Positions 42,117-64,000 of a DNA stretch of 64,000 bases are shown here, piece by piece (positions within the stretch are counted from its first letter, which is position 1; each line of letters starts with the position of its first letter). The position numbers were made by a program. The DNA comes from Escherichia coli O157:H7 (GTDB lineage Bacteria; Pseudomonadota; Gammaproteobacteria; Enterobacterales; Enterobacteriaceae): assembly GCF_013167455.1 (NCBI RefSeq), contig NZ_CP038328.1. The stretch is one strand, 5' to 3'.

Positions 42117-45100
42117 GTTTAAAAGACATCGGCGTCAGCGGATGTCTGGCTGAAAGGCCTGAAGAATTTGGCGCGTTAACAAAGCGGTTATGTAGCGGAT
42201 TGCAAATCCGTCTAGTCCGGTTCGACTCCGGAACGCGCCTCCACTTTCTTCCCGAGCCCGGATGGTGGAATCGGTAGACACAAGGGATTTAAAATCCCTC
42301 GGCGTTCGCGCTGTGCGGGTTCAAGTCCCGCTCCGGGTACCATGGGAAAGCTAAGAATAAAATCAAAGCAATAAGCAGTGTCGTGAAACCACCTTCGGGT
42401 GGTTTTTTCGTATTTGTATTTTGTGCAATGGCGGTAGAGTGGCGATGGTGTGGCGATATGCAGAAACAATGGTAGTGCACGTGCTGTTTAAACTCTAAGG
42501 ATGAAGCAGAATTCTTCTGCAGCTCCTCCGTATTTCGCATAGTGAACCAGGACCTCTGTTAAACAAAAATTTTTCTGGGATTTTTCCACTCGACTTTATT
42601 TTTCCTCCTGCAATCCACCAACAGGTACCTGCGCTAATCTATCTTTTTAATCTGACAACATCTTGGGAAAAGGCAAATTCGTCAGATTTACTGTTTTTCT
42701 GCTGCCTCGAATGCCGATGTCTGAAGCACTGATAAGAGTTCTATCTCTTTGATATAGATCTTTTTTTTGATGAATTGCACGACATATTATCGTTATGACA
42801 CCTTCTTGTTAAAGGTATTGTGCTCCTCATCTCGATTTTATGATGTGGGCTATGATTGGTTAGTAATTGAGTGTATCGGTATGCGATGTGGTTTATTAAT
42901 GGCAATCTGCCTTTGTTTAGTATCTTTTAGTGGATATGCAGCAACAGGAAAGTCTGATGCTCAGATCAAAAAAGAAATAATTAAAGAATCCATTGAATCT
43001 TATCCAGGCAATTGTGCGTGTCCTTATAATCATGCAAGGAATGGTAGTAGATGTGGTGGACGCAGTGCATATAGCCGTAATGGAGGGTATGACGTGGTAT
43101 GTTATGAGGGTGATGTTACCGATGAAATGATCCGGCAATGGAAGCAGGAGAATGCTGAGTAATCTCTTTTAACAGGTTTGTTGTGCGAGCATTATGTGCC
43201 GTTAACGGTTCACATCCCGAAAATCTGCGCTTCTGGCTGAAAGCCTGTCCGGTGGTCCTTCGTGAGCGATTTCATCAACAATGTAAGTGTAGATTCAATT
43301 GGTCAACGCAACAGTTATGTGAAAACATGGGGTTGCGGAGGTTTGGAACTATGGAAGAACGGAACAGGCTTCAGTGAAATAGCGAATATCCTGGGTTCAA
43401 AACCCGGAACGATCTTCACTATGTTAAGGGATACTGGCGGCATAAAACCCCATGAGCGTAAGCGGGCTGTAGCTCACCTGACACTGTCTGAGCGCGAGGA
43501 GATACGAGCTGGTTTGTCAGCCAAAATGAGCATTCGTGCGATAGCTACTGCGCTGAATCGCAGTCCTTCGACGATCTCACGTGAAGTTCAGCGTAATCGG
43601 GGCAGACGCTATTACAAAGCTGTTGATGCTAATAACCGAGCCAACAGAATGGCGAAAAGGCCAAAACCGTGCTTACTGGATCAAAATTTACCATTGCGAA
43701 AGCTTGTTCTGGAAAAGCTGGAGATGAAATGGTCTCCAGAGCAAATATCAGGATGGTTAAGGCGAACAAAACCACGTCAAAAAACGCTGCGAATATCACC
43801 TGAGACAATTTATAAAACGCTGTACTTTCGTAGCCGTGAAGCGCTACACCACCTGAATATACAGCATCTGCGACGGTCGCATAGCCTTCGCCATGGCAGG
43901 CGTCATACCCGCAAAGGCGAAAGAGGTACGATTAACATAGTGAACGGAACACCAATTCACGAACGTTCCCGAAATATCGATAACAGACGCTCTCTAGGGC
44001 ATTGGGAGGGCGATTTAGTCTCAGGTACAAAAAACTCTCATATAGCCACACTTGTAGACCGAAAATCACGTTATACGATCATCCTCAGACTCAGGGGCAA
44101 AGATTCTGTCTCAGTAAATCAGGCTCTTACCGACAAATTCCTGAGTTTACCGTCAGAACTCAGAAAATCACTGACATGGGACAGAGGAATGGAACTGGCC
44201 AGACATCTAGAATTTACTGTCAGCACCGGCGTTAAAGTTTACTTCTGCGATCCTCAGAGTCCTTGGCAGCGGGGAACAAATGAGAACACAAATGGGCTAA
44301 TTCGGCAGTACTTTCCTAAAAAGACATGTCTTGCCCAATATACTCAACATGAACTAGATGAACCGCCCCGGGTTTCCTGGAGAGTGTTTTATCTGTGAAC
44401 TCAGGCTGCCAGATCATCGTTTCCGATGGAAGCATAATAAGCTTTTTCTGCTTCTGCCGGAGGAGTATGGCCCAGCCTTCCCAGCAATCGTCGATTGTTA
44501 TACCAGTCCACCCACGTTAGTGTGGCCAGTTCCACTTCTGCACGGTTTTTCCAGCTCTTACGGTGTATTACCTCCGCTTTGTAAAGACCATTGATGCTCT
44601 CAGCCATCGCGTTGTCATACGAGTCGCCTGTACTCCCTGTTGATGCCAGTAATCCGGCTTCTTTTAGTCGCTCCGTATAGGCCAGTGACACATACTGAGA
44701 GCCTTTATCGCTGTGATGGATGGTGCCAGACGGACGACGGGCCCACAACGCCTGCTCCAGCGCATCCAGCACGAATGTCGTTTCCATAGACGATGAGACC
44801 CGCCACCCCACGATGTATCCGGCAAACACATCAATGATAAACGCCACATAGACGAAGCCCTGCCATGTGCTGACGTAAGTAAAATCAGCCACCCACAGCT
44901 GGTCAGGTCGTTCTGCCACGAACTGACGGTTTACGCGGTCGCCTGCGGCAACGGCTTTCCGGCTGATGGTCGTACGGACCTTTTTACCCCGGAGAACACC
45001 GGCAAGTCCCATAACCGCCATGAGACGTGCCACTGTACATCTGGCCACCCTGATTCCTTCCCGTAACAACTGACGCCAGACTTTACGCACACCGTACACC

Positions 45101-63100: not shown

Positions 63101-64000
63101 TGTAGATGAGATTGAACGCCTTCTGATTGCGTGTGATGAGTCACGGAATAAAGATTTGGGGGTTGTTGTCCGTATTGGGCTTGCGACTGGTGCTCGGTGG
63201 AGTGAAGCAGAAGGATTAAAGCAATCTCAAGTACTGCCCGGTCGAATCACATTTGTTAAAACTAAAGGAAAGAAGAACCGCACTGTACCGATTTCACCTC
63301 AATTGCAAGCTATGCTTCCTAAAAAACGAGGAGCGCTATTTTCACCATGTTATGAGGCTTTTGACGCTGCAATTAAGAGAGCGAAGATCGAGCTTCCTGA
63401 TGGGCAATTAACTCATGTGCTACGTCACACGTTTGCCAGTCATTTTATGATGCGGGGTGGAAATATTCTTGTGTTGCAAAAAATACTGGGGCATAGCGAT
63501 ATAAAAATGACTATGCGTTATGCGCATTTTGCTCCAGGTCATTTAGAGGCTGCTGTTGAATTGAACCCTTTTGACAATAGAGGGTAAAAAGTGGCGATAA
63601 AAAGTGACAATAGATTCAAATGGCGTTGTATAGAGCCATTTTCAAAGTTAATAAAATCATAAGGTTATGATTTATAAATGGTGGTTGATAGTTTTTAAAA
63701 TCCCTCGGCGTTCGCGCTGTGCGGGTTCAAGTCCCGCTCCGGGTACCATGGGAAAGATAAGAATAAAATCAAAGCAATAAGCAGTGTCGTGAAACCACCT
63801 TCGGGTGGTTTTTTTGTGCCTGCAACTTGTCGTTACACCCTCCTTGATTTTTAATCACCGGCAAAGCCACTCAAAAAGTATCTCTGATACGGACCGGCAT
63901 GTAAGATAGGTGCTGGCGAGTTGAGATCCACAAGGAAAAGCGTATGAAAACGGGACCGTTAAACGAAAGTGAGTTGGAATGGCTGGACGATATTCTGACC

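Follow-up and report, generated by a model that had tools for sequence, protein, structure and literature searches.

Prophage Sp13 at leuZ of Escherichia coli O157:H7: a decayed P88-like element flanked by a tRNA-derived attachment-site duplication

Identification of the island

The DNA analysed here, referred to as the window, is a stretch of 64,000 nucleotides (nt) from Escherichia coli O157:H7 (RefSeq assembly GCF_013167455.1, contig NZ_CP038328.1), and it contains an island of 21.4 kb between the tRNA-Leu gene leuZ and yecA. The island is almost certainly prophage Sp13, a decayed P88-like element of the P2 family (Peduoviridae, Xuanwuvirus) that would still excise but form no virions. An initial annotation of the window had described a degraded P2-like prophage of about 21.4 kb, inserted in leuZ and extending up to yecA. 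The flanking repeats and the gene content agree with that description, which was made without recognition that the element is the published prophage Sp13, as is evident from the annotation of strain Sakai and from the att core printed in Figure S5 of Asadulghani et al. (2009, PMC2669165).

Identity of the island to E. coli O157:H7 genomes was 100%, and 261 complete genomes contained 80% or more of it. In the Sakai genome (NC_002695.2) the same locus is annotated as 'prophage Sp13, P2-like phage' and has the same gene order. Sp13 was reported as the only P2-like prophage of Sakai, without most morphogenetic genes; it formed circles spontaneously, with an approximately 30-fold rise after mitomycin C, was induced transcriptionally, and its DNA was detected in particles (PMC2669165). 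The att cores were defined in that study by sequencing of circle junctions, and Figure S5 gives a core of about 121 bp for the L, P, and R sites of Sp13. This core is the reverse complement of the two repeat copies in the window (42288-42408 and 63694-63814), including the single nucleotide polymorphism (SNP) between them, and the published attP carries the allele of the leuZ side (C). In a long-read study, leuZ was likewise the Sp13 site and was vacant in another O157:H7 lineage (PMC8190617).

The window and Sakai have in common the leuZ-yecA locus, the gene order, the att core with its SNP, and both of the deletions bounded by insertion sequences (IS). They differ in that the window carries an additional full-length IS629, located after the partial IS30 and ahead of the tail genes, together with a 1030-bp deletion. 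There is no evidence that contradicts the identification as Sp13. The counterpart in strain EDL933 is, we believe, the element called CP-933T. The element itself was already known, as were the site at which it integrates, its att core, and its capacity for excision, all published between 2001 and 2009 (Hayashi 2001; Asadulghani et al. 2009) and annotated in the reference genome.

Flanking repeats and integration site

The tRNA genes were located with ARAGORN, and the repeats were delimited by a combination of pairwise alignment, a repeat finder, and base-by-base comparison. To the left of the island, ARAGORN called tRNA-Gly (glyW), tRNA-Cys (cysT), and tRNA-Leu(taa) (leuZ, 42256-42342, + strand). 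Base-by-base comparison gave a direct repeat of 121 nt, 42288-42408 against 63694-63814, with identity at 120 of the 121 positions. The sole mismatch is a C at 42351 against an A at 63757, which leaves perfect stretches of 63 and 57 nt; a second mismatch follows at 42409, and identity collapses beyond it. Each copy is made up of the last 55 nt of the tRNA-Leu gene, beginning at the anticodon loop (TTTAAAA), and of 66 nt downstream of the gene that include a terminator hairpin. It is impossible for a repeat of this length to have arisen by chance. The alignment thus confirmed the near identity of the two copies, and, with the hairpin at 42385-42406, the earlier statement that repeats of about 120 bp comprise the tRNA 3' half and its terminator. 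The right-hand copy, first placed at 63696-63817, was displaced by 2 to 3 nt.

A 500-bp probe spanning the empty site matched without a break in 3,792 of 5,426 complete E. coli genomes (about 70%), in which the leuZ-yecA junction is uninterrupted. In about 1,630 other genomes the match to the probe broke at position 132/133, which is the anticodon loop, and the leuZ site is occupied in about 30% of complete E. coli genomes. Among the occupied genomes sampled, the repeat always started at the anticodon loop. Up to four copies of the repeat block, belonging to tandem elements, were seen in some genomes. As the comparison with uninterrupted genomes had been expected to decide, the island is an insertion and not ancestral sequence. 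The contrary reading, in which the island would be ancestral here and the repeats would stem from a local duplication instead of being att sites, can be practically dismissed: besides the uninterrupted junction in about 70% of genomes, unrelated prophages occupy exactly the same position in other genomes and the block is present in the attP of free phages, and no support for such a duplication was found in these comparisons.

The empty site of E. coli MS 16-3 is equal to the left flank of attL, one copy of the block, and the right flank of attR, and it has the A allele. The attR block (63694-63814, + strand), which has the A allele and was not called a tRNA by ARAGORN, is therefore the displaced bacterial copy of the leuZ 3' half and terminator, and the distal attL block (42288-42408, + strand, C allele at 42351) is derived from the phage, in agreement with the repeat comparison, the empty site, and the published attP. 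The leuZ gene is accordingly a reconstituted one (ARAGORN, Rfam tRNA, and empty-site alignment), in which the 5' part is bacterial and the sequence from 42288 onward was supplied by the phage. The intrinsic terminator hairpin of the glyW-cysT-leuZ operon (42385-42406, + strand) is also the phage-supplied copy, and its stem is conserved by compensation in the attP of phage ZF40. Since the phage C allele is found both in attL and in the published attP, the crossover took place to the left of 42351; the SNP confines it to 42288-42350, and the position at which identity begins on the left suggests the anticodon loop. With identity beginning in the anticodon loop, an intact regenerated tRNA gene on the left, and the displaced 3' fragment on the right, the island has the layout of the anticodon-centred class of Williams (Islander class A), and its tyrosine integrase gene stops 106 nt short of attR.

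Three direct WRTGGYGRT repeats with a spacing of 11 bp (42427-42457, + strand) begin 19 nt past the repeat block and are conserved in the leuZ prophage of E. coli 33E; they are candidate arm-type sites of the integrase in the P' arm. Two further sites of this kind (63590-63598 and 63677-63685), conserved in 33E as well, are located between int and the block at the other end.

The following course of events is proposed. The phage would have entered by tyrosine-integrase recombination in the leuZ anticodon loop, using an attP that bears a copy of all that lies 3' of the crossover, namely the tRNA 3' half, the spacer, and the operon terminator. Integration would rebuild a working leuZ and terminator at attL, and the displaced bacterial copy would stay behind at attR as the 121-nt repeat. 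The terminator copy may restore termination of a strongly transcribed tRNA operon and may also shield the prophage end from read-through. Against this account of Sp13 it has to be set that the published experiments used a slightly different allele (Sakai, with neither the extra IS629 nor the 1030-bp deletion), that we infer the exact crossover position within the anticodon loop, and that the WRTGGYGRT motif was picked after inspection of the sequence, so that its role as an arm-type site is a tentative assignment.

Repeat length in other leuZ phages

The initial annotation had called the repeats far longer than a typical att core. This holds in comparison with a core of the lambda type, but the length is not unusual for the site. 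An intact prophage at leuZ in E. coli 33E has a perfect repeat of 124 nt, and an unrelated prophage of 42.6 kb at leuZ in the ST131 strain EC958 has a repeat of 125 nt that ends at the same base, just past the T-run of the terminator; the start of the repeat is also the same in 33E, EC958, and Sp13. A shared int-attP module was considered as the cause of the identical repeat end in EC958 and was rejected, because the EC958 integrase is 27% identical over 123 residues to that of Sp13 and its gene is located at the other end of the prophage and in the other orientation.

The same cassette was found in the attP of the free phages mEp390, where it is annotated as a putative attP, Fostie, and Pectobacterium phage ZF40. 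In these three phages it starts at TTTAAAATCCC and ends past the terminator. Compensatory changes, from G:C to A:T in the T stem of mEp390 and Fostie and in the terminator stem of ZF40, indicate that the cassette is maintained as a working tRNA 3' half and terminator. In the P2-family phage HP1 of Haemophilus, about 180 bp of attP are identical to the host, start from the anticodon loop of a tRNA-Leu, and restore the 3' part of a tRNA operon; this identity block is even longer than that of Sp13, and the host and the tRNA operon are different ones. An anticodon-centred site entails that the whole tRNA 3' half is duplicated, and 2,083 of the 3,919 islands mapped in the Islander survey were anticodon-centred (PMC4383910). 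On the sequences compared here, the 121-nt repeat is a standard attachment-site duplication for phages that target leuZ.

Excision and recombination between the repeats

It had further been suggested that the long repeats could allow RecA-dependent loss or duplication of the island independent of the integrase. That recombination of this kind between the repeats of about 120 bp is a significant route to island loss or tandem duplication is very unlikely. The stretches of 63 and 57 nt of perfect identity do exceed the minimal processing segment for RecA recombination in E. coli; homologies of about 60 nt situated 21 kb apart nevertheless recombine rarely. A further point in favour is that the leuZ site is vacant in some O157:H7 strains (PMC8190617). 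A crossover in the right half of the block was sought by its footprint, the C allele joined to the yecA flank, using a 91-nt probe. No perfect full-length match was found in 5,416 genomes, every full-length match being 98.9% identical and having the one expected mismatch, in a test that covers the right-hand 57 nt and is blind to crossovers in the left 63 nt. Furthermore, Int and Cox are intact, the sequenced circles have the structure and allele that exchange at the left boundary of the block would give, and circle abundance responds to induction (PMC2669165). Intact Int and Cox, the expected circle junction, and the response to induction together identify site-specific recombination as the operative route, and the RecA proposal has to be regarded as speculation. 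Nothing in these results suggests that homologous exchange between the repeats is of importance.

Relatives and family placement

Among classified phages, nucleotide identity was highest (93-96%) to Xuanwuvirus P884B11, P88, and 520873 (Peduoviridae). P884B11 was 93.3% identical over 56% of the island, P88 was 94.6% identical over the early region, and 520873 was 97.9% identical over the segment from C to int; for these phages and the 33E prophage taken together, nucleotide identity to Sp13 was 93-98% across the early region, the tail operon, and C-int. The Int and Cox proteins of the 33E prophage are identical to those of Sp13, and ParM/ParR partition genes (ParMR) beside gpA are common to Xuanwuvirus, 33E, and Sp13. 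Phage 520873 was considered as a possible free episome because of its ParMR genes; this was rejected, as its record includes yecA and hence represents a prophage cut from the chromosome. The intact relatives, about 37 kb in size, possess ogr and D as well as genes for the baseplate, fibre, invertase, lysis, head, terminase, and portal, none of which is found in Sp13. Sp13 is thus a defective remnant and not a functional member of Xuanwuvirus.

The P2-like character of the island is given by gpA, the C/Cox switch, and an int gene downstream of C (phrog_91, phrog_575, and phrog_1). Sp13 resembles P2 and 186 in the divergent C and Cox genes, the position of int, the rolling-circle initiator gpA, and the FI, FII, E, E', T, and U genes. 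It is unlike P2 in its anticodon-loop site in a tRNA gene, the 121-nt block, ParMR, an epsilon gene, and a C4 RNA; P2 has non-tRNA integration sites with a short core and is not known to carry ParMR, an epsilon gene, or a C4 RNA. In Sp13 and in the Xuanwuvirus/33E lineage, the FI-FII-E-T-U operon is on the strand opposite to the D, fibre, and baseplate genes, whereas the tail, D, fibre, and baseplate genes of P2 are co-oriented.

Gene content

Genes were annotated on the basis of PHROGs, NCBIfam, Rfam, and the RefSeq annotation of an identical strain. The gene nearest leuZ, on the left edge of the phage, is a hypothetical one (42881-43162, + strand) and represents the last stretch that the window and the intact relative have in common ahead of the first deletion; homology stops at 43213. 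It is followed by a partial IS30 without its 3' end (43288-44359, + strand; RefSeq annotation and Sakai comparison) and by a full-length IS629/IS1203 of 1310 bp (44359-45668, - strand), which has terminal inverted repeats and an ALIL frameshift pseudoknot and is missing at this place in Sakai. The tail genes are next, all on the + strand: the C-terminal 226 codons of the tail sheath gene FI (45674-46354; phrog_23, profile positions 245-475), the tail tube gene FII (46354-46866; NCBIfam TIGR01611 above the cut-off), the gpE and E' tail assembly chaperone genes (46921-47450; phrog_103 and GpE family), the tape-measure gene T (47437-50240), and the gpU tail protein gene (50247-50741; phrog_76). 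The tape-measure gene is annotated as frameshifted or as a pseudogene; its first frame stops at 49525 and it then continues in another frame.

An acetyltransferase moron (50898-51470, + strand; RefSeq and NCBIfam) corresponds to ECs2638 of Sakai, the gene that was swapped for cat in the earlier experiments (PMC2669165). The tail fibre assembly gene (51514-52044, - strand) contains a full-length Rfam IS009 match of 191 bits (51551-51749, - strand). A partial IS629-like element of the IS1203 family (52047-53103, + strand) is inverted with respect to the full copy and 95% identical to it. The ParR-like and ParM partition genes (53136-54414, - strand; phrog_2515 and phrog_691) are also present in P88 and in the 33E relative; adjoining gpA and conserved in Xuanwuvirus, these plasmid-type genes make it a question whether such phages persist as plasmids.

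The replication endonuclease gpA is full length and without an internal stop (54491-57313, - strand; phrog_91, E 1e-274), and a small open reading frame (ORF) separates it from a P4 epsilon-like derepression (antirepressor) gene (57758-57988, - strand; PHROGs, RefSeq, and PMC2669165). Upstream of the latter are a C4-type antisense RNA (58045-58132, - strand; Rfam RF01695, 78.5 bits against a gathering score of 45) and an isrK-type RNA with upstream target sites (58168-58242, - strand; Rfam RF01394, 63 bits against a gathering score of 50). The other early-operon genes (58311-60609, - strand) comprise small ORFs and genes for MarR-like, DUF4754, and DUF4761 proteins. The Cox-like excisionase/repressor gene (60631-60834, - strand), whose product is identical to the 33E Cox, is followed on the opposite strand by the C-type immunity repressor gene (61133-61537, + strand), two accessory genes between C and int that encode a membrane protein and a DUF2511 protein (61553-62580, + strand), and the tyrosine integrase gene (62586-63587, + strand), whose product is identical to the 33E Int.

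No head, terminase, lysis, or baseplate genes were found in the island with PHROGs, NCBIfam, or the RefSeq annotation, and a complete virion module is lacking, with Q, P, O, N, M, L, the lysis genes, V, W, J, I, H, G, D, and ogr all missing. The inventory given in the initial annotation was therefore upheld, both for what is kept (an integrase, a repressor switch, an early operon, gpA, and sheath, tube, tape-measure, and U genes, of which the sheath gene is a C-terminal fragment and the tape-measure gene is frameshifted) and for what is missing or broken (no head, lysis, or baseplate genes, and several genes disrupted).

Decay by insertion sequences

Decay was mapped by a BLAST comparison of the window with the apparently intact prophage of about 37 kb that occupies the same site in E. 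coli 33E. The segment 43213-45668, containing IS30 and IS629, takes the place of 2.5 kb of the 33E prophage that include hok, ogr, D, and the 5' end of the sheath gene. The segment 50747-53104, containing the acetyltransferase gene, the fibre assembly gene, and the IS629 remnant, replaces 17.9 kb with the invertase, fibre, baseplate, lysis, head, terminase, and portal genes. IS30 and IS629 insertions with adjoining deletions would thus have removed ogr, D, and the baseplate, fibre, lysis, head, and packaging genes, leaving Sp13 presumably unable to build virions.

The 5' part of the sheath gene and the remaining fragment of D were taken by the 1030-bp deletion, which abuts IS629 (45668/45669). 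A series of states was found at this place in O157 strains: Sakai has no full IS629 and a whole sheath gene, 17B6-2 has IS629 without the deletion, and other strains have deletions of 447-870 nt beside IS629, that of the window (1030 nt) being the largest seen. The IS629/sheath junction of the window was absent from 5,426 complete genomes; all ten records with a query coverage of 80% or more gave split matches with 160-583 extra bases. Nested deletions of differing extent beside IS629 indicate that decay is ongoing and driven by IS629.

Two IS629-family copies (44612-45678 and 52037-53103), inverted and 95% identical, bracket the 6.4-kb tail remnant. Homologous recombination between them could flip the tail segment, whose orientation in the window is that of the intact relative.

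The C/Cox switch, Int, gpA, ParMR, and the epsilon-like antirepressor are intact, and they would allow excision of a circle by recombination of attL with attR, followed by replication.

This pattern bears on an alternative that we consider quite improbable, namely that the island is more than debris: a satellite-like integrative replicon, retained by selection, that keeps functions for integration, immunity, replication, and partition and travels in capsids made by other prophages. In its favour, the antirepressor module and all of Int, Cox, C, gpA, and ParM/ParR have survived intact whereas the structural genes were lost, the 261 complete genomes preserve 80% or more of the island, and Sp13 DNA is found in particles despite the missing head and packaging genes (PMC2669165). 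The losses, however, are IS-bounded, haphazard, and still continuing, with IS629-adjacent deletions that vary by strain, and useless tail remnants and a frameshifted T persist. The region adjacent to the portal gene has been deleted, and P2-type cos sites lie beside that gene. Marked Sp13 was also not listed among the transferable prophages (PMC2669165). A decayed, excisable prophage remains the preferred reading.

The C4 antisense RNA module and mitomycin C induction

The isrK RNA (58168-58242) and the C4 RNA (58045-58132), both above the Rfam gathering scores, are located directly upstream of the epsilon-like gene. When the C4 RNA was folded, two segments, UCUUUGCUC and GUUGAGAA, were left unpaired, and these have complements, arranged as paired sites, both in isrK and in the epsilon leader. 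Upstream, the complements of 8-9 nt occupy 58217-58210 and 58202-58194; downstream, they occupy 58041-58034 and 58006-57998. The leader site at 58006-57998 overlaps the ribosome-binding site of the epsilon-like gene, a layout like that of c4/ant in P1. The P1 c4, P4 cI, and Gifsy-1 IsrK modules have paired target sites on both sides as well, the downstream one covering the ribosome-binding site of the antirepressor. Unlike these, the Sp13 module lies inside a P2-family early operon and is predicted to control a P4 epsilon-like gene. Homologous modules were found in about 1,950 E. coli genomes, beside Rha, Icd, or Ash genes. An ORF of 205 codons (57682-58299, - strand), annotated in Sakai as ECs_2630, 'antirepressor protein', overlaps both RNAs and the epsilon-like gene; it is probably spurious and has been dropped from the current RefSeq annotation of other strains.

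The Sp13 repressor is without a peptidase motif and is not cleavable, and the induction of the prophage by mitomycin C was called 'remarkable' and left unexplained (PMC2669165). No LexA box (CTGT-N8-ACAG, with at most one mismatch) was found upstream of the epsilon-like gene. LexA-like matches numbered 19 against 17.7 expected, which is the level of chance, and the single perfect match, at 55244, is inside gpA. Induction might instead act through a c4-type switch that masks the antirepressor ribosome-binding site and is triggered in trans by another, SOS-induced prophage, a doubtful explanation at present; the C4 RNA could, for example, be titrated by transcripts with matching target sites. 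If this were true, it would constitute an RNA-level route of cross-talk between prophages.

Significance

The finding adds little to what had been published on Sp13, and its value is mainly corrective, with regard to the length of the repeats and to the RecA proposal. For those who work on O157, the nested IS629-adjacent erosion of the tail genes and the c4-type RNA before the epsilon-like antirepressor may be of specialist interest. Beyond this strain, the cassette of a tRNA half plus terminator is common to several unrelated lineages of phages and integrases that target leuZ.

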